This document shows positions 2,706 to 31,596 of a stretch of 32,000 nt of DNA, piece after piece. Position 1 is the first letter of the stretch. Each line of letters starts with the position of its first letter. Below the pieces are notes generated by a model. That model saw only the letters and a program-made list of their open reading frames with translations, did not search any database and was not told the DNA's origin. Made by a program: the position numbers and the translations under genes. Origin of the DNA: Clostridia bacterium (lineage in GTDB: Bacteria > Bacillota > Clostridia > UBA1212 > DUPL01); contig JBMNIW010000008.1 in assembly GCA_050951325.1 (NCBI GenBank), positions 62,103 through 94,102 of the forward strand, written 5' to 3'.

Positions 2706-4134
2706 CGATTTCTTTTTCTATCAAGAACCCTAGTTCCTTCCTTACATTTGCAAACTCGTCATTGTCTCTTGTGTAATTTAAAAGTGACTTTGAAACTTTA
2801 TTTATAAGTTTCAGAGTCGCTTCTTTTCCTATGGTTTCTTCCGCCATTTTAAGATATTCAAAATCCTCAATACCATCCCTTACAGCTTCAAGTCTCAATG
2901 AGCCACAAGGACCATTCTCTCCGTTATACAGTAAGGATCCGTCGCCAAACACATAATCAGACAACCATTTGACAGTAGCCATGTCTTCCCAAGGATCGTC
3001 AACATACTCCCAGTAGTTGGAGTGCCAGTACAAAAGGCCATCCACATCATACAGCCTCTTTTGCCAGAACAGAATCCTGTGCATGATTCCTGACATGTCA
3101 ACAAAGAGATTGCAATATGGATCACCAGGCTCCCAGCATACATACCAGAGCACTTTGTCTCCCCTTCTCTTCTTTTCTACCATCTTCTCTCCAAAAGGTT
3201 TTGTTTCAGATACATATACATCCGTGTTTATCCACATGTAACTCTTTGGACACCATATGTTTGAAACGCCGTCCAAAAGCTCCACACTGTCCTTTTCAGG
3301 GCTGTCGATAGGATTAACAAAAAATGGTGTGCATACATTGTTGTTTGGAAACAGCCTGTTCAGCCTTTCCTTGTATTCATACAACTTTTTGTAATGCTCC
3401 ATACATGAAGGCTCGTCTAGAGGATAAAAAAATCCTTTCGAGAACCATTCTTTATTCTTAACAAGTTTGTTATAGTATTTTACAATAGTATCATCGTCAC
3501 TTGAGTAGGGAATTCTGAAACTTGTCATTCGCAGATCCGACAGATATTTGTCTGCCTCATCACTAAGAATATTACAAGGAATGTCATATGCGGATATTTT
3601 ATGCTTAAGTAGAAACTCATAATATTCTGCATATAGTTTATCAGTGCCATGCATTTTCTCAATATACTTTCTACCAAGACCAAAAGCTGTAATGCAGCTT
3701 GGAGTAACCGGAAGAGTAAAATCAAAAACACAAATATCGATATGGGATTTGATTGTTCCCTCTTTAGTACTAATCAAAACCACCGCTTTGTGGTCGCCAG
3801 ATTTTACATCGCTAACAGCATGGAAACGTATGTACACTGGCTGCCTTACGCCCTTTTTTAGAGGTATTTTGGTGTTGTCGCAAATGGGCATAAGTCCGTC
3901 AGGATACATATGTTCTTTCTTTACAGATACATACCTGACAAGAAAAATATCAAAAGTAAAACCGTCTACTTTCACACTTACCGACACTTCGGCATCCACT
4001 TCCGATTTTAGAACCAGCTGGCATCCTTCATATTCATTTCTTGCCATGTAAATCTGAAAACTGCTTGTTTGTCTGTCCAAAGTAGTGTCGTTAAGTATCT
4101 TTGAATAAGGATGGTCAAAATAATATTTTATCAT
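2698..4134 (-). CDS. DUF4091-like glycoside-hydrolase-like protein
   Basis: Uninterrupted 478-aa ORF. Blocks such as WYVCWEPGDPYCNLF, LLYWHSNYW and RLEAVRDGIEDFEYL resemble DUF4091-family proteins, as recalled from memory. The 3' end overlaps the convergent CotH gene by 8 nt. Confidence 0.55.
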   Translation of the reverse strand: MIKYYFDHPYSKILNDTTLDRQTSSFQIYMARNEYEGCQLVLKSEVDAEVSVSVKVDGFTFDIFLVRYVSVKKEHMYPDGLMPICDNTKIPLKKGVRQPVYIRFHAVSDVKSGDHKAVVLISTKEGTIKSHIDICVFDFTLPVTPSCITAFGLGRKYIEKMHGTDKLYAEYYEFLLKHKISAYDIPCNILSDEADKYLSDLRMTSFRIPYSSDDDTIVKYYNKLVKNKEWFSKGFFYPLDEPSCMEHYKKLYEYKERLNRLFPNNNVCTPFFVNPIDSPEKDSVELLDGVSNIWCPKSYMWINTDVYVSETKPFGEKMVEKKRRGDKVLWYVCWEPGDPYCNLFVDMSGIMHRILFWQKRLYDVDGLLYWHSNYWEYVDDPWEDMATVKWLSDYVFGDGSLLYNGENGPCGSLRLEAVRDGIEDFEYLKMAEETIGKEATLKLINKVSKSLLNYTRDNDEFANVRKELGFLIEKEIVR

Positions 4135-13904: not shown

Positions 13905-14411
13905 ATGGAAAACAGCAAATTCGGGTTCGTTCGTCATCCTTACGAGCCCGTTTTTAATATTGATTCTAAAGTACTAATTTTAGGGACTGTTCCATCTGTT
14001 GCGTCCCGCAAATACGGCTTTTACTATACCCACCCTCAAAACAGGTTTTGGAAGGTTTTGTCTTCCATTTTAAACGAAGAATTTCCCGATACTATCGAAA
14101 AAAAGACTGACATGCTGTTGAAAAACCACATTGCTCTATGGGATGTGTTAAAAGAAACACAAATCAAAGGAAGTAGCGACAGCTCTATTAAAAATCCCAA
14201 ACCCAATGATATCAACCGGATTCTAAACAGCACTGACATCAAAGCAATTTTTACAACGGGCAAAAAAGCCTTTGAACTTTATAACAAATTATGTTATCCT
14301 AAAACGAAGTTCAAGGCGATTTGCCTTCCTTCCACCAGTCCTGCCAACTGTGTTTACACATTGGACAGGCTTATTGATGAATACTCAATCATACTAAAAT
14401 ATATACAGTAA
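13905..14411 (+). CDS. Uracil-DNA glycosylase superfamily protein (hypoxanthine/deoxyinosine-DNA glycosylase-like)
   Basis: 168 aa. The GTVPSVASRKYGFYYTHPQNRFWKVL motif is typical of the small UDG-family-6-like glycosylases, as recalled. Confidence 0.6.
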   Translation: MENSKFGFVRHPYEPVFNIDSKVLILGTVPSVASRKYGFYYTHPQNRFWKVLSSILNEEFPDTIEKKTDMLLKNHIALWDVLKETQIKGSSDSSIKNPKPNDINRILNSTDIKAIFTTGKKAFELYNKLCYPKTKFKAICLPSTSPANCVYTLDRLIDEYSIILKYIQ

Positions 14412-20833: not shown

Positions 20834-23666
20834 GCTTAATACTCTTCTTGTTTTACACTACTCTCAAACGTACACATCCAGTGACGGAGCAACAGCAAGC
20901 TTAATACTCTTCTTGTTTTACACTACTCTCAAACGATGCGATACCAGGTGCAGACATATGTCATAAATCAATGCTTAATACTCTTCTTGTTTTACACTAC
21001 TCTCAAACGTGGCGACCATCCCGTACATTATGCATAAATCACATGCTTAATACTCTTCTTGTTTTACACTACTCTCAAACGCGTATCCTTATTTGGTTTG
21101 AATCACACCAGCTTAATACTCTTCTTGTTTTACACTACTCTCAAACTACTCTTATATGCCTTGCCTTCCCGACCTTGCTTAATACTCTTCTTGTTTTACA
21201 CTACTCTCAAACCCTTGGTCTTTCTTCTTTGAACATAATATCAGCTTAATACTCTTCTTGTTTTACACTACTCTCAAACTGATCGTACCTCTGCCATTAA
21301 TAGTTATGCTTAATACTCTTCTTGTTTTACACTACTCTCAAACATGTCAGGCGCAATGCTTAATACTCTTCTTGTTTTACACTACTCTCAAACATGCAGG
21401 CATAGTATTCGCTTAATACTCTTCTTGTTTTACACTACTCTCAAACACCAGTCTGAGACTCACAGTCAGCTCTCGGCTTAATACTCTTCTTGTTTTACAC
21501 TACTCTCAAACAAGGCACAGCGAGCATGCACAAGGCGAGAAGTTAAGCTTAATACTCTTCTTGTTTTACACTACTCTCAAACGACTGTTCCATCTGTGGT
21601 ATTTCAGAGTAACTGCTTAATACTCTTCTTGTTTTACACTACTCTCAAACATATGCACAGTGGAGCATAGCAAGTATGCGCTTAATACTCTTCTTGTTTT
21701 ACACTACTCTCAAACAGTCAAGCAATAATGAGAGGTATATATCGCTTAATACTCTTCTTGTTTTACACTACTCTCAAACACTAGCCAATACTCCCGACCA
21801 ATCTCTGCTTAATACTCTTCTTGTTTTACACTACTCTCAAACGACAGATAGAGGATTAGTACCATAGCTTAATACTCTTCTTGTTTTACACTACTCTCAA
21901 ACATTCCTGGGTACAATGACCGTCTTGCTGTCGCTTAATACTCTTCTTGTTTTACACTACTCTCAAACCTAGTATAAGTTATTGCAGCAATAGCTTAATA
22001 CTCTTCTTGTTTTACACTACTCTCAAACAAGCAGATTGTCATACTCGAGCATATGCTTAATACTCTTCTTGTTTTACACTACTCTCAAACATTGAGGCTT
22101 GTCGATCATCACAGTAGCATTGCTTAATACTCTTCTTGTTTTACACTACTCTCAAACATATTGGAGGCACAGCGCACAGAATTAAGGGCTTAATACTCTT
22201 CTTGTTTTACACTACTCTCAAACACGCCATAGAGCTATGCGCTACAAAGGGCTTAATACTCTTCTTGTTTTACACTACTCTCAAACTGCTTACTGTTAAC
22301 AATAAAACAAAACGCTTAATACTCTTCTTGTTTTACACTACTCTCAAACGCTTAACGTCTACCTCCAGCAGTCCATTATGCTTAATACTCTTCTTGTTTT
22401 ACACTACTCTCAAACACTGAATGGTGAAGCGGAGAAAATCGAGGCTTAATACTCTTCTTGTTTTACACTACTCTCAAACAAGTGCGATCGCATACGAAGG
22501 CATATCGCTTAATACTCTTCTTGTTTTACACTACTCTCAAACGAATCAGGCTCTTATGTGCCCTGGTAGTGCTTAATACTCTTCTTGTTTTACACTACTC
22601 TCAAACCCGTCGCCGGTAACTTGAAGCCAGCTTCAGCTTAATACTCTTCTTGTTTTACACTACTCTCAAACACCGCCTTCGAATAGAGACAGCGATGCTT
22701 AATACTCTTCTTGTTTTACACTACTCTCAAACCATGCTGTGAACTCATCAACAAGCGCTTAATACTCTTCTTGTTTTACACTACTCTCAAACCACTTGCT
22801 ATCAAACACATGTACTTGCTTAATACTCTTCTTGTTTTACACTACTCTCAAACTAGCTGACAGGAATTGCAACAGAAGCAGGCTTAATACTCTTCTTGTT
22901 TTACACTACTCTCAAACGCACTGATGCAGGCTATACTCCGAAATTAATAGTACTGCGCTTAATACTCTTCTTGTTTTACACTACTCTCAAACGACTATCA
23001 GGCTATATTGAACATTAACTGATACGGCGCTTAATACTCTTCTTGTTTTACACTACTCTCAAACATCATCGTAAGCATTACGCCCTGCATAGCTTAATAC
23101 TCTTCTTGTTTTACACTACTCTCAAACTGAGATGGTCATATTCCGCATATGTAAACAGCTTAATACTCTTCTTGTTTTACACTACTCTCAAACCGCGAAC
23201 GCAGGCACTATCAAACGACATTGAGCGCTTAATACTCTTCTTGTTTTACACTACTCTCAAACCGGTAATATTACAGAGACCATTACAGCATTCGCTTAAT
23301 ACTCTTCTTGTTTTACACTACTCTCAAACGGTGGCGGGGGCTTCGTTGAACAACAAGGATGCTTAATACTCTTCTTGTTTTACACTACTCTCAAACAGGT
23401 TTGTATCCGTTAGCTTGAGCGTAACCGCTTAATACTCTTCTTGTTTTACACTACTCTCAAACTCAAAAACTGGAGGGTTGAAGACCTGTCATGCTTAATA
23501 CTCTTCTTGTTTTACACTACTCTCAAACTTAATATTGCTTGATATGTTTCTCTTAGCCATGCTTAATACTCTTCTTGTTTTACACTACTCTCAAACCTCA
23601 AGGCGTGTACTACTAAACCGGAGATGTGCTGCTTAATACTCTTCTTGTTTTACACTACTCTCAAAC
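20834..23666 (-). CRISPR. Type II-A CRISPR array: 44 identical 36-nt repeats, 43 spacers (14-39 nt)
   Basis: The crRNA-sense repeat (minus strand) is GTTTGAGAGTAGTGTAAAACAAGAAGAGTATTAAGC. Repeat starts on the plus strand run 20834, 20899, 20973 ... 23561, 23631. Orientation is set by the tracrRNA anti-repeat, the GTTTnAGAG 5' end, and the leader next to csn2. Confidence 0.97.
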
Positions 23667-23738
23667 CCTCAAATTTCGATATGTAGGTAGTGTGCATTGT
23701 CATTGTATACAATATGTAGAAATTGTCAAACTGGATAT
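23667..23738 (-). promoter_or_regulatory. CRISPR leader with candidate promoter and ATTTGAG leader-end motif
   Basis: On the minus strand, TTGACA (23729..23724)-N16-TACAAT (23707..23702). The leader ends ...CGAAATTTGAGG immediately before repeat 44. Confidence 0.6.
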
Positions 23739-24407
23739 TTATATCCTGCACAAACTTTCATCCACAATATGCAACACTTCATATTCAAGCTTTTCTCTAC
23801 AGGTACTTTCTACTAGCATAATGTTTATTTTCTTATAAAACACATGCTTGTACAACTCCTTAAGCTCGTTCTTGTTTAGGAAACTCTTCAAGTTAACGAA
23901 TATAAAACACTTAATAGCACAAATCTCTGACATAATACTAAGGTAATCTATTATACACCCAAGCAACTCTTGATTGTCAGTGCAGACTTTTACGTCAGAT
24001 AACTTAAGTAATGCAAGAATATCATTTTGGTTCTTATACATTATCGGATAATCAATGTCTTCAATAATTGTCTCAATAAATCCAGATATGGAGCCAAGCA
24101 ATTCAGTCATAGCCAAATAATATTGATCTAACGCAAGCTCATTCATGTTCTCATAAATCTTATTAAGTATCCTTTTGTTATTCACATCCAGACCAAAAAC
24201 ATCAAGTATAAGATCAACGGCTTTAGAAAAATTCAGTTTTTTGAAATCCTCTGAAATAATCGCTTCACCATCTTCCCCTGAAAGTTGGCAAAGTATATCC
24301 TGCAAAACGCTTCGTAAAAACTTTGCATTTTCAATAACAAGTACATTTACTCTATTTTCTTCAAACTCAAACGGTTCATCCCAAAAGGGGTGAGTAAATC
24401 TAATCAT
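23739..24407 (-). CDS. csn2: Csn2 (type II-A adaptation protein)
   Basis: 222 aa, positioned directly after cas2 (4-nt overlap) and before the leader. The N-terminus [30 protein letters not shown] matches the recalled short-Csn2 pattern. Confidence 0.85.
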
Positions 24408-24724
24408 AAGACAACCAACCTTTCATCACTATCCACAAAATCGGTTTTCTTTTCTCCTACAACAAACTCCATTTTCGAAAACTGCTTTTCTGTTATTGTT
24501 AAGAGCTGAACTATACCTTCTTTAGGTTTATTGCGTTTAACTTTTCCAACGATTGAATTTGCAACAGTTGTGTTTAATGCTAACTTACAATAAACAGACT
24601 CCTGTAACATTAAAAATCCGCTTTTTACTAGAAATGTTCTAAACTTTCTATACTCTCGTTTTTCGGAAGTTGTAACAGATGGTAAGTCAAAGAACACAAG
24701 TACTCTCATGTATCTATAACTCAT
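24404..24724 (-). CDS. cas2: Cas2
   Basis: The start at 24724 gives [32 protein letters not shown]..., the same N-terminus as recalled S. pyogenes Cas2 (MSYRYMRMILMFDMP...). The track ORF start at 24778 is an upstream extension inside cas1. Confidence 0.9.
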
Positions 24725-25589
24725 ATCGGTAATGCCTGATATGAGAAATGTCGTTTTCATTAAGTGCATTAAATACACTTTTACAGTAAATCGTTATGGC
24801 ATTATTCACAAAATGCCTCTTACCATCTATTACAACTTCCTTGTTTAGAACATCGACCAATTCTTGCTTGTCTTTTTTTGTAAACTCTTTTAAGTCCATC
24901 CAGTAAACCTCCCTGTCAACTAGTATTCTATATGGTTCCATCAAGTCTGATGCCAGGTTAAAACTATTAAACATGCTATCGTGAAATATTCCGATTTGAG
25001 TGAGATAGCCATTTGCTGTGATTTCCCTATTAAAAGCAGAAAGAAGAATTGTGTAACCATAGTTCAATGCAGCATTAATATTGTTTTCTTCTGTTCTGGT
25101 GAAATTATGTCCAAACAACGCATTAAAATAAACTTTAGCGGCAAATCCTTCTCTATTGGTCGCATCATCAAATTCCAGTTCATTCAAGTATGATTCCAAA
25201 AGTTCTGCTTCAGTTTTTCGAGACAACTCTCTTAAAAAACACATTTGGTTATAGATTTTTTCTCTCACTACTTCCGTCCACACAAATTTTTTAGTATTAC
25301 AATCCCAATTTATCTGATTCTTTATTTTTGCGGAACAATCGTGGGAACCGTAATATGAAATTAATTCTGATTGTGGATTTCTTTTTTCATCACAAAAGAT
25401 AACTTTTATTTTCCTTTTTATTAATTCAGACAACAGGTATGCCGTTAAAGACACACCTGTATTCTCAATTATCAATGTAGAAATCTCGTTTAGGTATATT
25501 TTGGATGTTTCCTCTCTTCGAATTATCAAATAATTCATTTTGTAATCCAGTTTAGCTCTGCTGGAGATAATTACTGTTCGCCAACTCAT
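24714..25589 (-). CDS. cas1: Cas1 (type II)
   Basis: 291 aa, [24 protein letters not shown]..., with [11 protein letters not shown] and GIFHD motifs. It overlaps cas9 by 4 nt and cas2 by 11 nt. Confidence 0.92.
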
Positions 25590-28500
25590 TTCAGCAAGTT
25601 CACCTTCTTTTGAAATAAGCCGGTTACAGACTGGTTGATGATATACGCAGTGCTAAACTCAGAAATTTTATTTGGCATCAAAAATATAACAGTATTCTTA
25701 CTTCCTCCAATCAACTCAAGATTTGATTTTACTACACTACACTTGAACAGACTCAAAATCTGTCCCAATGCTTTACATTGAGCCTCAAGTGTCAAATCCA
25801 CAAATAGCTGTCTTCCTTCTTTTAGTTTTTCAAAAGGAACTCGGTACATATACTTTTGATTGTACATGTCATTACCCGTTATACTAGCAAGCCTATCATA
25901 TAGTTTCACATTTTCATCCGCAGTAATATGATCATATGGCGTTATTCTTATATCCCTTTTTGCCTCACTCGCTTTTTTCAAAAAATTATATATTTTCTTC
26001 ACATATTCTTCCTCTTCCGGCTTCAAAGTTAGTTGTACCCCGTTTTTATAGGTTAATCTGTTCCCTGTCCGCCCAGAAAGATGCAAATAGTATCCATTAA
26101 TACAAAACAACGTATTTACCTTAATTTTAGGTATGATTATTCGAGGATTAATCAACCCTTGGTCAATCAAATATGCAGTCATCTTGCCTTTATCTGACTC
26201 CAATTGCTTTTTCAATACTAGAGGAACATACTCAATCGAACGAACTCTTTTGTTCTCCTTGCCATGCTCTACAAGCACATAATATGCCCCCGTTAGCTTG
26301 TTGTATCCACCATATTGGGCTATTTTATCAGTGTTCTTGCTAAGTCTAAAATCTCCTCCTTTCAACGGGAATTGCCCACTACCTTTCTTTACAGGCTGAG
26401 AGTCAAAATATTCACCTTTGCTTTCATAAGAATGCCTCGTAAATTGTATATTATTTGTGTTGTATGTATCATGTACCGTTTTGATAGTTCCTTCTGGTCC
26501 TGCTTTCCACGCACAATATTCATTTCGTATAACATCATAGTCATACAAAGTATTAAATGAATAATTCCTCTTAGACTTTTTTACAAAGTTTATTGGATCA
26601 TGCGTAAACTTCACATTATACACATTGCCAACAACTATATTAAGATACGCATCTTTAGCATGATGAAAATCGTTAAGCTCACGTACTTTATAAAAATAAT
26701 ACTTGTTTTTCTCATCCTTATTAAATATATTTCTGAAATCATTTACCAACATAGCCTTTGTGTAAACAACTTCAGTAGACTTTCCAAAAATACTTTTTAA
26801 AATGTTAGCAACGGCTTTAGTAGATTGTCTTACTTCGACAAGCTGCCTTGCAATAAACCCTGCCAACTCTTCGTCGGTCAATTCCGTTTTTCTAATCAAT
26901 CTTTCATATTTATTCTTCCCCATAAACCCTTTATCATACAGCATCTTCCAGTATGTTTTATTTTTCTTCTGCCATTCGTGATCGATTGGGTACTTGTCAC
27001 CTTTTATTGCGTTATATACTTTTTTGACGAGAACTCTGTTTGCTAAACTGTCATCCTTAATATATCGCTGAGGGTAAATATGATCAATGTCATATGTATC
27101 AGTAAATAGCTCATCAATAGGAATTGGCTCACCGGAATACATGCACCTGCCCATCTGGATATAATAAAGAAATAGTTTATCCTGTCGCAGCCTATTATCA
27201 TCATATCCTTCAAGTTCTGCTATCCAATCCCTTGAATCATTCTCGATTGCCTTATATAATTCTAAAAGCTGCTCTTTTCTTGATTTTGTCCTAACTTTTT
27301 CCCCTGGCTCACGAGCAACCTCAATAAAGACTTTTTTCGGATCACTTTTCATAATTTTTCGTATTTCATCAACAATTAATAAAGCCTGCCAAATGCCTCG
27401 TTTAATTTTAGGGGATACATATAACTCCTCCACCAAAGCATAATCAATTCTCCCACTAAAATCTGGAAGTTCTTCTCTATTTATCCTAATAACCTCTTTA
27501 TAGAAATCATATTTTTTGCTTAACAGTTCGTTAAGGTTGTTGTTTGTATTTCTCAAACCAGAAATAATATTAAAATATTCTCCTGTTTCCTTGTCTACAG
27601 AGTATATTTCCGTAAGAAACTCCCTTGATAGTCTTCCCCAACCAGAATACTTTGTTGATAATGTCATTATTCTATCTATTTCATTATCACTCAGTTTATC
27701 TTTATATGTTTTTGTTATTTTTGCTCTCAAAATCTTCTTGTCTTGACCAAACAAAACAATCCATCGAATAATATTTTCAATCATTTCTGTATCATTTACC
27801 TGGTCCCCCAACAACCTAGAAAAATCAATGTAGGACGTCAAAGATACATTGAAGTCACCATCTATCCCGGTGATAACCGCATCCTTTTCTATTACGCCTT
27901 CAATTTCTAAAAACTCTCTTAATCTCTTTAGGGTTACCTTATAGTATTTTTTGAAAAGTCTGTCTATTATTCTGTATTTAAGTTCAACAGATATTTTTTC
28001 TCCATTAATCCTCAAATTGTTAAGTTGGTTCAATACCATAAACTCACTATATAGCATCGAATGTTTTGGTATTACGTTCTTGCTTTCTAAATATGTACAT
28101 TTACTAGTCATTCTCGAAATAAACTTCTCTGCGCTTGCCTCAATATCAACCACACTATCAAAATTCCAGGGAGTAATTCGTTCTCTAGATTTTTTTACCA
28201 CCCAGCAATTACCACCATATCCATCATTTACTTTGTGTGCATCATTAATTGGACCAACATAATAAGGTATTCTGAAGGTCATTATTTTTATAATCTTCTC
28301 TTTATTAGTGAATCCAGTCTCGTCCTTGAAATTTAAAAAATCGAGATACTTGGATGCATTCTCTAATATTCTCTCCAACTCTTCCAAGTGTAGCTGATAT
28401 GGCAAGATAGTGTTATCTTTAATCTTTTGCTTTGGCAAAAATGTCTGGGTCTCAATTTCAGTGAGGATATAATCAACATCTTTGTCTTCAAGATTTTTCC

Positions 28501-29659
28501 TTTTATTTAATATTCCTTTTATGTATTTATAGAATTCTTCTCTTGTACACTTTTTTAGCACAGGAATCTTTCTCTTGTTTTTCATGCACAAATCCACATA
28601 AGAACAGTAATTTCCATGAATGTTTGGAGCATTGAATATTTCATCATATTTTTCGGGATAATGTTTTTTAATTACTTTTTTCAATAGTTTCAAATCAGTC
28701 TTATGTTTCTCATAATCAGCAACTTTAGCTTCTGATAAATACGTATACTTTTTCTTCAAATCAGACAGCATTGACCAGTCATACAACTGCTTTGCCGCTA
28801 TGATTAAGTCTGCTTTATTATCTAATATCATTGTAAGATTATCCAAATCCTCTTCTGTAAAGTTGTCGGTAATCTTTAGCTTATTCATATTGCTTTCCAC
28901 AAGAGAATCATCATCATACAGTACAGACAAGGTAACTGTACCACCAGCAAGCAAGTTCACAATTTCCTTACCCGTTGCATTCTGAGAAGGCAATAATTCC
29001 GAAAGTTGCTTTTTCTTATCGTTTACTGATAGCCTCTTACTGCTCATTATCTCAGACAGCGCATCCAGATCCTTGCATTCAATATCGATATCAAGAGCTT
29101 CTTTGACTTTCTCTACAAACATATCAAAAGGAACAGAAAACGAATCAAACGAATTAATAGTAGTACCTTCAAATAAAAAATGGCCCCTTTTCTTGATAAT
29201 ATGATGTAATGCCAGATACACTAGACGTACATCAAACCTCTTTCCATCTTCCAGTAATGCCTTCCTGAGATGATATATTGTTGGATACAGTTTATGAAAG
29301 TCCTTGTCCTTAAAATCACTATCATTAAATAATGTATTGGTTTGCTGTTCATGCTTGTCCTCTATGTAATACTTGCTGTCTTCCAATCTTTGAAAAAAAC
29401 CAGAATCCACATTGTAAATCTTTTCTGCAAAAATATCCTGAAGAAGGTTGATTCTTTGTCTTCTCCTCTTAAGTCTTCTCCTGCCTGCCCTGGCAGTCCT
29501 TCTTACTTCTGCAGTATTACCGCTGTCAAACAAGCGCACACCCCACATTGACTTTCCGTTAAAGCGCAAGATATTATAATTCAGATCTGTAACAGCCCAA
29601 CCTACCGAATCAGTGCCAATATCAAGTCCTAAAAAGTAATCACCAAAATTTTTTTCCAT
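25586..29659 (-). CDS. cas9: Cas9 (type II-A, 1357 aa), catalytic motifs intact
   Basis: RuvC-I GLDIGTDSVGWAV, an Arg-rich bridge helix RRTARAGRRRLKRRRQR, HNH YDIDHIYPQ...NRVLV, and RuvC-III NDFHHAKDAYLN. GGGAG lies 8 nt upstream of the ATG. Confidence 0.97.
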   Translation of the reverse strand: MEKNFGDYFLGLDIGTDSVGWAVTDLNYNILRFNGKSMWGVRLFDSGNTAEVRRTARAGRRRLKRRRQRINLLQDIFAEKIYNVDSGFFQRLEDSKYYIEDKHEQQTNTLFNDSDFKDKDFHKLYPTIYHLRKALLEDGKRFDVRLVYLALHHIIKKRGHFLFEGTTINSFDSFSVPFDMFVEKVKEALDIDIECKDLDALSEIMSSKRLSVNDKKKQLSELLPSQNATGKEIVNLLAGGTVTLSVLYDDDSLVESNMNKLKITDNFTEEDLDNLTMILDNKADLIIAAKQLYDWSMLSDLKKKYTYLSEAKVADYEKHKTDLKLLKKVIKKHYPEKYDEIFNAPNIHGNYCSYVDLCMKNKRKIPVLKKCTREEFYKYIKGILNKRKNLEDKDVDYILTEIETQTFLPKQKIKDNTILPYQLHLEELERILENASKYLDFLNFKDETGFTNKEKIIKIMTFRIPYYVGPINDAHKVNDGYGGNCWVVKKSRERITPWNFDSVVDIEASAEKFISRMTSKCTYLESKNVIPKHSMLYSEFMVLNQLNNLRINGEKISVELKYRIIDRLFKKYYKVTLKRLREFLEIEGVIEKDAVITGIDGDFNVSLTSYIDFSRLLGDQVNDTEMIENIIRWIVLFGQDKKILRAKITKTYKDKLSDNEIDRIMTLSTKYSGWGRLSREFLTEIYSVDKETGEYFNIISGLRNTNNNLNELLSKKYDFYKEVIRINREELPDFSGRIDYALVEELYVSPKIKRGIWQALLIVDEIRKIMKSDPKKVFIEVAREPGEKVRTKSRKEQLLELYKAIENDSRDWIAELEGYDDNRLRQDKLFLYYIQMGRCMYSGEPIPIDELFTDTYDIDHIYPQRYIKDDSLANRVLVKKVYNAIKGDKYPIDHEWQKKNKTYWKMLYDKGFMGKNKYERLIRKTELTDEELAGFIARQLVEVRQSTKAVANILKSIFGKSTEVVYTKAMLVNDFRNIFNKDEKNKYYFYKVRELNDFHHAKDAYLNIVVGNVYNVKFTHDPINFVKKSKRNYSFNTLYDYDVIRNEYCAWKAGPEGTIKTVHDTYNTNNIQFTRHSYESKGEYFDSQPVKKGSGQFPLKGGDFRLSKNTDKIAQYGGYNKLTGAYYVLVEHGKENKRVRSIEYVPLVLKKQLESDKGKMTAYLIDQGLINPRIIIPKIKVNTLFCINGYYLHLSGRTGNRLTYKNGVQLTLKPEEEEYVKKIYNFLKKASEAKRDIRITPYDHITADENVKLYDRLASITGNDMYNQKYMYRVPFEKLKEGRQLFVDLTLEAQCKALGQILSLFKCSVVKSNLELIGGSKNTVIFLMPNKISEFSTAYIINQSVTGLFQKKVNLLK

Positions 29660-29660
29660 G

Positions 29661-29689
29661 TTGACAACTCCCTTTTTATATGCTATTAT
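29661..29689 (+). promoter_or_regulatory. tracrRNA promoter TTGACA-N17-TATTAT
   Basis: The -35 (29661..29666) begins 2 nt beyond the cas9 start codon on the opposite strand. The cas9 RBS (complement of 29668..29672) lies in the promoter spacer. The -10 lies at 29684..29689. Confidence 0.65.
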
Positions 29690-29694
29690 GTAGA

Positions 29695-29785
29695 TACACT
29701 ACAAGTTCAAATAACAATTAATTGTAAACGTCTTAATGACTCCACAGATGTGTGGGAGAAAAACTTGCCTCGTGCAAGTTTTTTC
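29695..29785 (+). ncRNA. tracrRNA: tracrRNA
   Basis: The anti-repeat TACACTAC-AAG-TTCAAAT (29695..29712) pairs with the crRNA repeat 5' end GTTTGAGA-GTAGTGTA. It has the same bulge geometry as S. pyogenes (CAGCATAGC-AAGT-TAAAAT). An AACAATTAATTGT nexus-like hairpin, a CTCCACA/TGTGGGAG hairpin (29740..29758) and a terminator ACTTGC-ctcgt-GCAAGT + T6 (29763..29784) follow. The 5' end is uncertain. Confidence 0.82.
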
Positions 29786-29813
29786 TTTTATAAATCTTCA
29801 TAAGCTTGAAATT

Positions 29814-29842
29814 ATTATAACAGTCCTTTCCAGTTTGTGCAA
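29814..29842 (-). promoter_or_regulatory. Candidate minus-strand promoter TTGCAC-N17-TATAAT upstream of tracrRNA/cas9
   Basis: The -35 is the complement of 29837..29842 and the -10 is the complement of 29814..29819. It points toward cas9 through the tracrRNA gene. Confidence 0.5.
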
Positions 29843-30216
29843 GACTTGAGAAATGATAAAGAGCATCCTCTCAGATGCCCTATACGTTACCTCAACGGTT
29901 CTACACTTTTATTTCCTACCTTGGCTTTGCCCGGAGTTTCTTTTGCTTGTTTTGATTTGCCTTTCTCCTGGGATATGGGTATTCCTTTAATCATAATAAT
30001 TAGATATCATCAGGCTTGTCTTGCTTTTTCTTGCTCTTGTTCTGCTTGTTATCCGACCTGCCTGGAGTCTTTTCATTTTGCACTTGTCTTTTACTCCAAA
30101 TTTATCACCTCGGGATCTATTATGCAAGTCATTTAAAATAATTATGCATATTAACTGGAAATTGTTCTAAACATGATATATAATTATGCCAAAAATGAAT
30201 GGAAAGGAAAATCAAA

Positions 30217-31596
30217 ATGAACATTTATGAAGAAAACCTGAATGCGAACTATCATAATTATACATTTGGACCTTATCTGGCCACAGACGATTTGGGAAGG
30301 TCATTGCCAACGAGTGACGAAACCGGCCCCCAGAGAAAGAACAGACATGTCGGCATGTTCTATTTCCTCTGGAACGGTGTGCATGTAGGAGATAAAAGGC
30401 CACTTGACATATCAAAAATAATTGCGGCATATCCAAAAGCAGGCTACTACCCTGATATGGATATCTGGGGAGCATACTCAGTCATGCACCACTGGGGAGA
30501 GCCTCTCTATGGATACTACTATACCGAGGATGAGTGGGTAATGAGAAAACATATAGAAATGCTGACCATTGCCGATATAGACTTCCTTGTTTTCGATACA
30601 ACCAATGCCGTAATATATGAAAGAAACGCAAAGCTGATGATGAGACTATTAAACGAGTACAGACAGGCAGGTTGGAATACTCCAAAAGTCGTATTCTACA
30701 CAAACACCCGCTCTGGCTATTCAGCCCAGCTCATTTATGACGCTATATACAAAGTAGACTTCATGCCTGACACATGGTTCTATCTTGATGGCAAGCCATT
30801 AATAATCGCAAAAGAAGACGAGTGTTCGGAAGAAGTAAGAAATCTCTTCACAATACGCGCTTCCCAGTGGCCAAACGAGCCTACCAAGCTTAATGGCTGG
30901 CCTTGGATGGATTTTGAAAGACCACAAAGAGTGCTGAAAAATCACAGAGGCGAAGATGAAATCATAAATGTGTCAGTTGCCCAGCATCCACAAATAAGGT
31001 TTGGCGACTCTGCCTTGTATGGAGAAGAATCAAACCGCGGCAGATCCTATCACAACGGTGCAAATGACAAATCAGAAGGTGCGTATAAATATGGATACAA
31101 CTTTGCAGAACAATGGGAACGTGCCCTTGAAACAGATCCACCATATGTTTTTGTAACCGGCTGGAATGAATGGATTGCAGGAAGATGGCAGGGAACCGCT
31201 GAAAGACCACTGAACTTTGTTGACTGTGCAGACATTGAGTTCTCGCGAGACATAGAACCAATGAAAGGCGGATACTTTGACAACTACTACATGCAGCTAA
31301 TATACTACGTCCGCAAGTACAAAGGCACCCAGCCAATAATCAGGCAGGAGGAAATGGAGACAGCCAGCGTTGCAGACTGCTTTGCCCGTTTCAACCGCAG
31401 CAAGGTTGTATACAGAGACTTCCCCAAAGGTGCTATGAGCAGAAACTGCAAAGGTTACGATACGGTATATACGAACAACACCGGAAGGAATGAAGTAATC
31501 GAATCCAGAGTTCTGCATGACGAGCACAAAATATACTTTTATGCAAAAACCTCGGCACCTATTGAGAGATACGATTATCAGAGTGCACCTGGATGA
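30217..31596 (+). CDS. Putative glycoside hydrolase-like protein (TIM-barrel, GH99/GH71-like features); N-terminal part of a probably split gene
   Basis: Long ORF with FYFLWNG, HHWGEPLYGYYYTEDEWVMRKHIEMLTIADIDFLVFDTTN and FVTGWNEWIAGRW. AAGGAAA lies upstream of the ATG at 30217, which is preferred over 30199. The family call is tentative. Confidence 0.6.
   Translation: MNIYEENLNANYHNYTFGPYLATDDLGRSLPTSDETGPQRKNRHVGMFYFLWNGVHVGDKRPLDISKIIAAYPKAGYYPDMDIWGAYSVMHHWGEPLYGYYYTEDEWVMRKHIEMLTIADIDFLVFDTTNAVIYERNAKLMMRLLNEYRQAGWNTPKVVFYTNTRSGYSAQLIYDAIYKVDFMPDTWFYLDGKPLIIAKEDECSEEVRNLFTIRASQWPNEPTKLNGWPWMDFERPQRVLKNHRGEDEIINVSVAQHPQIRFGDSALYGEESNRGRSYHNGANDKSEGAYKYGYNFAEQWERALETDPPYVFVTGWNEWIAGRWQGTAERPLNFVDCADIEFSRDIEPMKGGYFDNYYMQLIYYVRKYKGTQPIIRQEEMETASVADCFARFNRSKVVYRDFPKGAMSRNCKGYDTVYTNNTGRNEVIESRVLHDEHKIYFYAKTSAPIERYDYQSAPG

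Follow-up and report, generated by a model that had tools for sequence, protein, structure and literature searches.

The 32,000-nucleotide (nt) stretch of Clostridia bacterium contig JBMNIW010000008.1 analysed here, hereafter the window, carried a type II-A CRISPR-Cas locus on its minus strand, with a cas9-cas1-cas2-csn2 operon followed by a leader and an array of 36-nt repeats. The explanation that accounted best for the observations overall, and which we hold with a confidence slightly above even, is that cas9 and the divergently read gene for the trans-activating CRISPR RNA (tracrRNA) share one control region, that this tracrRNA is a minimal one lacking the RNase III cut site, and that cas9 is transcribed mainly from a promoter distal to the tracrRNA gene. 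The Cas9 translation contained an N-terminal RuvC motif (DIGTDSVGW) and an HNH motif (DIDHI), both intact, and the identities of cas1, cas2 and csn2 were confirmed by Pfam. The coordinates of the features are collected in Table 1.

Relatives were retrieved together with their flanking DNA, namely P0002 (84% Cas9 identity) and members of Dehalobacterium, Sedimentibacter, Acidaminococcaceae, Tissierellia, Lachnospiraceae and other groups (46-54%), and the more distant Ezakiella, Citroniella and Sharpea were included in the comparison. Scans of genome and metagenome collections with the Cas9 N-terminus detected only relatives of 45% identity or less, and the close relative came from the protein index. 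The relative whose Cas9 is 84% identical to that of the window is designated L007, and L015 is an independent assembly with the same Cas9. The sequence of L015 agreed with the window over 29640-29880 except for one base at approximately 29798, which falls in the poorly conserved stretch that separates the tracrRNA terminator from the distal promoter.

A homologous RNA gene was found antisense to and immediately upstream of cas9 in the relatives (14 loci), and its anti-repeat covaried with the repeat of its own locus, as seen in the pairs ACACUAC/GUAGUGU, ACACCAU/AUGGUGU and ACAUGAC or ACAUAAC/GUUAUGU. Compensatory changes across loci were also detected in the terminator stem, and the fold of the RNA gave a z-score of -2.8. 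The gene combined an anti-repeat to the 5' part of the repeat, a bulge and a lower stem closed by a G:U pair (G1:U) with a nexus stem-loop, a Rho-independent terminator, its own promoter and a location adjacent to the cas genes. The tracrRNA was 92% identical between the window and L007, with no differences in the anti-repeat or in the terminator-stem core, and the synonymous divergence (dS) from L007 in its surroundings was 1.1 for the adjacent 5' part of cas9 and 0.39 for the upstream gene. Rfam returned neither a tracrRNA nor any other meaningful match, at gathering thresholds or with permissive E-values, and the assignment thus rests on homology to the neighbouring loci. These sequence comparisons indicated that the tracrRNA at approximately 29696-29786 is real and a bona fide member of type II-A.

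The predicted promoter of the tracrRNA scored 11/12 with an extended -10 element (TG), and its -35 hexamer occupied the spacer between the Shine-Dalgarno (SD) sequence and the ATG (29659-29657, minus strand) of cas9. The predicted start, A29696, was seven nt past the -10 hexamer, coincided with the first base of ACACUAC-AAG-UUCAAAU and was separated from the cas9 ATG by 36 bp. Four sites scoring 11/12 were found across 64 kb (the window, both strands) when compared to 1.25 +/- 1.0 in Markov resamples, and two of the four were the tracrRNA promoter and the CRISPR leader promoter, i.e. the promoters of the two RNAs of the system. Both hexamers and the TG were identical in L007. The distance between the end of the tracrRNA -10 and the cas9 ATG was 29-33 nt in about 10 of the 16 type II-A loci compared (the window, L007, L019, L010, L011, L016, L017, L018, L005 and L003); a second coordinate convention shifts these distances one position more negative, giving -29 or -30 for the window. 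The tracrRNA promoter was slightly farther from the cas9 ATG in the other loci. The layout recurred down to about 36% Cas9 identity, and the placement of the promoter on the ribosome-binding site (RBS) goes back to the ancestor shared by a broad Cas9 clade and is not peculiar to the window. No description of this interleaving was found in the literature searched. The survey of Workman 2021 covered only the Streptococcus, Listeria and Lactobacillus branch, in which loci without the tracr-L form just have intergenic regions shorter by approximately 200 bp.

The pairing between the repeat and the tracrRNA was short. The hybrid comprised 14 bp (7 + 7, with the AAG bulge) with nt 1-15 of the repeat, and its energy calculated by RNAduplex was -13.7 kcal/mol, against -39 to -47 kcal/mol in the relatives with a long anti-repeat, -41 kcal/mol in Streptococcus pyogenes and a type II-A median of -47.6 (Faure et al.). 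Intermediate hybrids of about -19 to -20 kcal/mol were seen in Ezakiella (L001), Citroniella and L003, an uncultured Clostridia metagenome-assembled genome (MAG). The upper stem consisted of 7 bp from the predicted start and would reach 8-9 bp if transcription started farther upstream, whereas it was 14-25 bp in the relatives. When the upstream DNA was included, the calculation gave 27-29 scattered pairs at -17.7 to -18.7 kcal/mol with a 5x5 internal loop after 8 bp, and a long anti-repeat duplex for co-processing by RNase III (about 20 bp or more) was not formed. Wherever transcription starts, the anti-repeat is short. No other anti-repeat was found in the window; a candidate for a second full-length one at 3167-3194 (75% over 28 nt, E = 0.38) was rejected, as it lay within a minus-strand open reading frame (ORF) and lacked a nexus and a terminator.

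The preliminary description of this DNA had proposed a near-consensus tracrRNA promoter holding the cas9 RBS in its spacer, and a start at the first base of the strong anti-repeat that leaves only a short bulged duplex. Both proposals were borne out, the former by TTGACA-17-TATTAT with a TG element and GGGAG inside, the latter by the 14-bp hybrid with nothing but scattered pairs upstream. An upstream 5' end giving a long duplex, which that description had named as the observation that would speak against it, was ruled out since the upstream DNA lacks the needed complementarity. The interleaving of promoter and RBS is likewise present in the window, but does not stand as a peculiarity of this locus, recurring as it does in about 10 of the 16 loci.

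Alignment from the cas9 ATG to the lower stem revealed a 26-nt gap in the window and L007 when compared with six relatives. In each of the eight relatives with a long anti-repeat, the missing stretch belonged to a predicted 5' hairpin (z-scores -3.4 to -8.9). This hairpin, called from single-sequence folds, was located about 30-70 nt upstream of cas9 in L019, L018, L011, L016, L010, L006, L020 and L021. Its loop displayed a distal anti-repeat GACUACC complementary to GGUAGUC of the repeat, its arms covaried, and its 5' arm copied part of the repeat; as folded, it resembles a device whose loop would nucleate pairing to the precursor of CRISPR RNA (pre-crRNA). No consensus came out of RNAalifold for the tracrRNA 5' ends of the relatives, because these aligned poorly. 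The 26-nt loss and the short anti-repeat are specific to the lineage of the window and L007, which is represented by two species-level genomes only.

The repeat diverged from exactly the position at which the pairing ends. Its identity to the repeats of relatives was 13-15 of 15 over nt 1-15 and only 8-10 of 21 over nt 16-36, compared with 13-19 of 21 among the relatives themselves. On the other hand, cas9 was under strong purifying selection between the two short-anti-repeat lineages, with a ratio of nonsynonymous to synonymous divergence (dN/dS) of 0.098 at a dS of 0.85, and both lineages held arrays of unique spacers; the system has been kept under selection since the deletion. It could be supposed instead that the truncation crippled interference and that the locus is decaying or kept for a non-defence role, in line with a hybrid far under the published stability range, the abnormal spacer lengths in the window array and possible frameshifts in the DNA neighbouring the locus. 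We consider this very improbable, as the low dN/dS extends across the whole post-deletion dS with the catalytic motifs intact, the tracrRNA substitutions spare the anti-repeat and the core of the terminator stem, and many unique spacers stand in both lineages behind an intact near-consensus leader promoter. Moreover, engineered single-guide RNAs (sgRNAs) with an even shorter duplex work.

The geometry of the hybrid makes guide maturation independent of RNase III plausible. The duplex, slightly larger than that of an engineered sgRNA, would be enough for Cas9 loading. The usual RNase III site lies approximately 12-14 bp up the upper stem, and the corresponding duplex is absent here, leaving the remaining 21 nt of each repeat as a purine-rich single strand. 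With no exposed double-stranded RNA at the usual cut site, the 3' ends of the crRNA would arise from other endo- or exonucleases, from trimming of the purine-rich repeat tail, or would be left long. The observation in favour of such independence was the absence of a long duplex substrate. Type II-C systems (Neisseria meningitidis and Campylobacter jejuni) offer a precedent for Cas9 function without duplex cleavage by RNase III, the enzyme being dispensable in N. meningitidis. Those systems keep a long anti-repeat and form the 5' ends of their crRNAs from repeat-embedded promoters, whereas one strong leader promoter was present here. Indeed, no repeat-embedded promoter of at least 9/12 was found in the repeats within 23300-23666, the best by eye being TTGAGA-17-GAGTAT (8/12), and the only strong minus-strand promoter site for this scanned array region was the leader promoter. 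In comparison with the engineered sgRNA scaffold, the version in the window is natural, is divided between two RNA molecules and retains 7-8 pairs of the upper stem.

Canonical co-processing by RNase III might persist if a longer tracrRNA began inside the 5' coding region of cas9, S. pyogenes likewise having two forms of its tracrRNA, and its imperfect duplex, stabilised by Cas9, were cut. Promoter-like sites on the plus strand at cas9 +112..+83 (10/12) and +107..+80 (9/12), the latter found at the same position in L007, L016 and L017, could start such an RNA, the upstream DNA would contribute the scattered pairs described above, and published work finds imperfect upper stems tolerated by RNase III. 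The extended hybrid would nevertheless have less than half the stability of those of the relatives and would be interrupted by the internal loop after 8 bp; the intragenic sites fall on conserved codons (Y-N-I...) and are perhaps by-products of coding; and identity in the half of the repeat where cleavage would take place is close to random, which is unexpected if that half still served as a processing site. This persistence is accordingly judged improbable. The intragenic sites themselves, antisense to cas9, could either give rise to a long form of the tracrRNA that runs antisense to the cas9 RBS or merely reflect the conserved codons.

The organisation was similar to that of the type II-A system of S. 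pyogenes (Deltcheva 2011; Workman 2021) in the location of the tracrRNA upstream of cas9 on the opposite strand, in the module order of anti-repeat (lower stem, AAGU-type bulge, upper stem), nexus and terminal hairpins, and in the cas9-cas1-cas2-csn2 operon followed by leader and array. It differed in that the S. pyogenes anti-repeat is a near-perfect one of 25 nt co-processed by RNase III, against 14 bp here, and in that the S. pyogenes cas9 promoter lies between the tracrRNA and cas9, where the window has only the 36 bp from tracrRNA start to ATG. Autoregulation by a natural single guide was rejected as a candidate. The tracr-L form is a long tracrRNA in which a repeat-like lower stem (GTTTTA) is preceded by a guide of 11-15 nt that matches the cas9 promoter beside a protospacer adjacent motif (Workman 2021), and the window had no plus-strand GTTTGA in 29200-29696 and no 11-mer shared with 29660-29900. 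The type II-A loci with GTTTGAGA-type repeats (Dehalobacterium formicoaceticum, Sedimentibacter saalensis, Acidaminococcaceae and Tissierellia MAGs, Ezakiella coagulans and Sharpea azabuensis) had a homologous tracrRNA body, a -35 hexamer a few nt from the cas9 start and the same gene order. These relatives differed from the window in possessing the 5' hairpin and the long, stable upper stem, with Ezakiella, Citroniella and L003 intermediate, and most of them lacked an obvious distal promoter. The RNA in the window is best described as a tracrRNA minimised in nature, with neither a long duplex, nor a tracr-L, nor promoters in the repeats. It belongs to a clade in which the region of cas9 translation initiation incorporates the tracrRNA promoter.

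As the tracrRNA promoter is conserved on the translation-start region of cas9, cas9 transcription must run through or out of this promoter. In the interval from the tracrRNA gene to the ATG, the cas9 strand contained only TTTGAA-15-CATAAT (8/12) and TTGAAC-14-CATAAT (9/12), and no cas9-strand promoter with a 16-18 nt spacer was found nearer to cas9 than the distal one. The distal promoter scored 10/12 plus TG, with a spacer of 17 nt (TTGCAC) or 16 nt (TGCACA). Its -10 and TG were invariant in L007, where one -35 substitution was detected and the whole block was 86% identical. The terminator-like hairpin located 17 nt upstream of the distal promoter was identical at 22/22 positions in L007 and L008, while its flanks were 71-86% identical (window versus L007). 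Every segment flanking the unconserved stretch between the tracrRNA terminator and the distal promoter was 71-100% identical to L007. The tracrRNA terminator was symmetric, reading A5-ACTTGC-loop-GCAAGT-T6 on the plus strand and ending in T5 on the minus strand, and is thus predicted to be a bidirectional intrinsic terminator; its core hairpin was weak (-5.3 kcal/mol on the plus strand and -5.9 kcal/mol on the minus strand), and the U-tract in the cas9 sense was 5 U. Two further elements were considered and rejected. The idea that a conserved antiterminator precedes the reversed terminator was dismissed because the intervening 27 nt are unconserved with a 13-nt indel, and an anti-SD role for CUCCC in the leader because it could form 5 bp at most and is already sequestered in its own hairpin.

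These elements suggest a distal route for cas9, in which we place a little more belief than doubt. Most cas9 transcripts would come from the conserved promoter with an extended -10 at 29842-29814, downstream of the insulating hairpin. The 148-nt leader of the cas9 transcript would be the full antisense of the tracrRNA, passing the weaker face of the tracrRNA terminator and then the tracrRNA promoter. The distal and tracrRNA promoters would be convergent with a predicted overlap of about 112 nt, an arrangement similar to that in convergent-promoter transcriptional interference, and through this overlap, collision or occlusion of polymerases, partial termination and pairing of sense with antisense RNA would link the outputs of cas9 and tracrRNA. 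A second cas9 start, with a short leader, may be supplied by the mirror face of the tracrRNA -10. The minus-strand promoter at 29814..29842, with a leader antisense to the whole tracrRNA, and the symmetry of the terminator had both been pointed out in the preliminary description and agree with the present analysis. The same description had seen no well-spaced proximal cas9 promoter, which was correct, but had dismissed the CATAAT hexamer too fast, given that it is the exact mirror of the tracrRNA -10 with predicted starts 18 bp apart.

This mirror site allows a different arrangement, in which a single bidirectional promoter with a near-symmetric -10 starts either the tracrRNA (about 29696) or cas9 (about 29678, with a 19-nt SD-containing leader) and the transcripts do not overlap. 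Coupling would then consist of mutually exclusive polymerase binding, strongly biased to the tracrRNA, and the sequence at 29842-29814 would give a short antisense RNA to the terminator, or little. The bidirectional promoters described by Warman 2021 have starts 7-25 bp apart (mode 18), a near-symmetric -10 and reciprocal -11A/-7T; CATAAT and TATTAT likewise share reciprocally coinciding -11A and -7T, and their predicted starts at 29678 and 29696 show the commonest spacing. The reverse hexamer matched at 5-6 of 6 positions in most relatives, and a reverse promoter of 9-10/12 with a 16-17 nt spacer was present in L011, L006, L018 and L021. Furthermore, the reverse start was upstream of the SD in every locus (at -19/-20 in nine of them), which would account for the fixed distance between promoter and ATG. 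In the window and L007, however, the reverse -35 was mis-spaced (14-15 nt) and no TG was present, so that the reverse face, in contrast to the promoters of Warman 2021, lacks a usable -35 or TG and falls, by consensus, far short of the distal promoter in strength. A mirror partner exists for any good -10, which makes the geometry by itself weak evidence, and the conserved terminator-plus-promoter unit at 29881-29814 would be left unexplained. We regard a single bidirectional promoter, and with it the proximal route for cas9, as possible but the less probable of the two; the proximal and distal routes are not exclusive.

Several observations weigh against a minimal, RNase III-independent tracrRNA coupled to a distally transcribed cas9. 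All the transcription starts are predictions from consensus matches. In some contexts, duplexes that are short or imperfect can be cleaved by RNase III, and a longer tracrRNA from the promoter-like sites inside cas9 (+112..+80) would add weak pairing. The distal promoter block was 86% identical to L007 when the surrounding intergenic DNA was 86-91% identical, and selection on it is not independently evident. The distal route is also no rule of the clade, since most long-anti-repeat relatives have no clear distal promoter, and a proximal bidirectional start with canonical geometry exists that would abolish the antisense overlap. Finally, the locus is a recombination mosaic, which complicates neutral expectations: cas1-csn2-leader was 99-100% identical to L007 and cas9 only 84% (window 23600-25589 versus 25586-29659), with dS values of 0.13 for cas1, 0.016 for csn2 and 0.85 for cas9, and the leader and repeat were nearly identical.

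Coupling of expression by occlusion, antisense pairing or attenuation is plausible from the geometry of the control region. A more far-reaching version is that this type II-A lineage abandoned tracrRNA-directed RNase III processing and makes its tracrRNA already 'mature', with a minimal anti-repeat like that of an sgRNA and with its crRNAs completed by other nucleases, that RNase III and antisense pairing now set the ratio of cas9 to tracrRNA, and that the layout is a conserved module, as yet undescribed, for coupling expression across a large Cas9 clade. The sole long perfect duplex left to the tracrRNA would then be that with the 148-nt cas9 leader. We put this version forward as a speculation that is unlikely to hold in full.

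Table 1. Features of the type II-A locus and its control region in the window
Feature	Position	Strand	Basis or remarks
cas9 (1357 aa), first gene of the operon	25586..29659	-	ORF; homologues named Cas9 with Cas9 Pfam domains
Intragenic promoter-like sites TTGACT-18-TATTAT and TTTCCG-16-TATAAT	29548-29580	+	antisense, cas9 codons about 27-37
tracrRNA promoter: -35 TTGACA 29661-29666, 17-nt spacer, TG 29681-29682, -10 TATTAT 29684-29689	29661..29689	+	promoter scan
cas9 SD sequence GGGAG, 8 nt upstream of ATG	29668..29672	-	read directly; within spacer of tracrRNA promoter
CATAAT, reverse partner of tracrRNA -10, candidate proximal cas9 promoter	29685..29690	-	predicted start near 29678, 19-nt leader
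tracrRNA, about 90 nt	about 29696..29786	+	homology, covariation, fold
tracrRNA anti-repeat	upper stem 29696-29702, bulge 29703-29705, lower stem 29706-29712	+	
tracrRNA 3' modules	nexus hairpin about 29714-29725, hairpin 29740-29758, terminator hairpin 29763-29779, U-tract to 29784	+	
Unconserved segment, tracrRNA terminator to distal promoter	29787..29813	.	56% identity and 13-nt indel versus L007
Distal cas9-sense promoter: -35 TTGCAC 29842-29837 or TGCACA 29841-29836, TG 29822-29821, -10 TATAAT 29819-29814	29814..29842	-	scan; predicted start about 29807
Terminator-like hairpin, 9 bp, GAGA loop, -12.1 kcal/mol, then UUUAUCAUUU	29860..29881	-	directly upstream of distal promoter
CRISPR array, 44 identical 36-nt repeats, crRNA sense GTTTGAGAGTAGTGTAAAACAAGAAGAGTATTAAGC	20834..23666	-	
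CRISPR leader promoter TTGACA-16-TACAAT, 11/12	23702..23729	-	leader identical in L007

The spacers of the window array ranged from 14 to 39 nt in length, with a lag-1 autocorrelation of 0.47. L007 had the same repeat and leader and 99-100% identical cas1-cas2-csn2, yet its spacers were uniformly 30 nt, and the other relatives showed repeat-spacer units of 65-67 nt. The most similar spacer pairs in the window were neighbours of similar odd length, which were 10/11 (36/39 nt), 41/42 (36/38 nt) and 35/36 (17/14 nt), and they aligned at both ends with internal indels. The search for spacer targets in a phage collection and viral contigs gave no usable match, so that no protospacer adjacent motif was derived. 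Inside the window, the 3' 15 nt of spacer 32 (ACAGATGGAACAGTC) matched exactly at 13985-13999 (minus strand), in a UDG-superfamily gene of the ORF 13905-14411, and CCTAAAAT comes next. Pairing of the crRNA there would be with the coding strand, and about 0.002 anchored 15-mers are expected by chance. The match could reflect partial self-target binding without cleavage, or chance.

Two small ORFs rich in lysine were located at 29887-30127 (minus strand), upstream of the hairpin at 29860-29881 (...KTPGRSDNKQNKSKKKQDKPDDI and MIKGIPISQEKGKSKQAKETPGKAKVGNKSVEPLR), and both were present in L007 and L015. In this neighbourhood, three single-C insertions were detected in comparison with L015 and L007 (listed window positions about 30068, 30091, 30105 and 31593-31596), and a neighbouring gene was split in the window (465 + 120 aa) against 584 aa in L015. 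These differences suggest indel errors or recent frameshifts; none of them fell in 29640-29880. In L018 (6806-7795) and L021 (6817-7761), a gene for a regulator with a WYL domain (HTH/WYL/WCX) immediately preceded the tracrRNA and cas9, on the upstream side, and had the orientation of cas9. It had no counterpart in the window, and is a candidate transcriptional regulator of those two loci.

If the 14-bp hybrid is all that is used, the locus represents a natural type II-A system operating on a repeat:anti-repeat module of sgRNA size, and its guides would mature without the RNase III step considered a hallmark of type II-A. Pipelines based on the anti-repeat would probably miss a tracrRNA of this kind. 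This would explain the tracrRNAs missed by anti-repeat-based searches in some Clostridia and Peptoniphilaceae-type loci; Chylinski 2013 reported no anti-repeat in 12 loci, several of which came from related taxa. The RNA would also provide a compact natural tracrRNA for a Cas9 of 1357 aa. For the clade, the arrangement offers a testable model of how the proportion of Cas9 to its RNA cofactor may be set, distinct from the tracr-L circuit of S. pyogenes.

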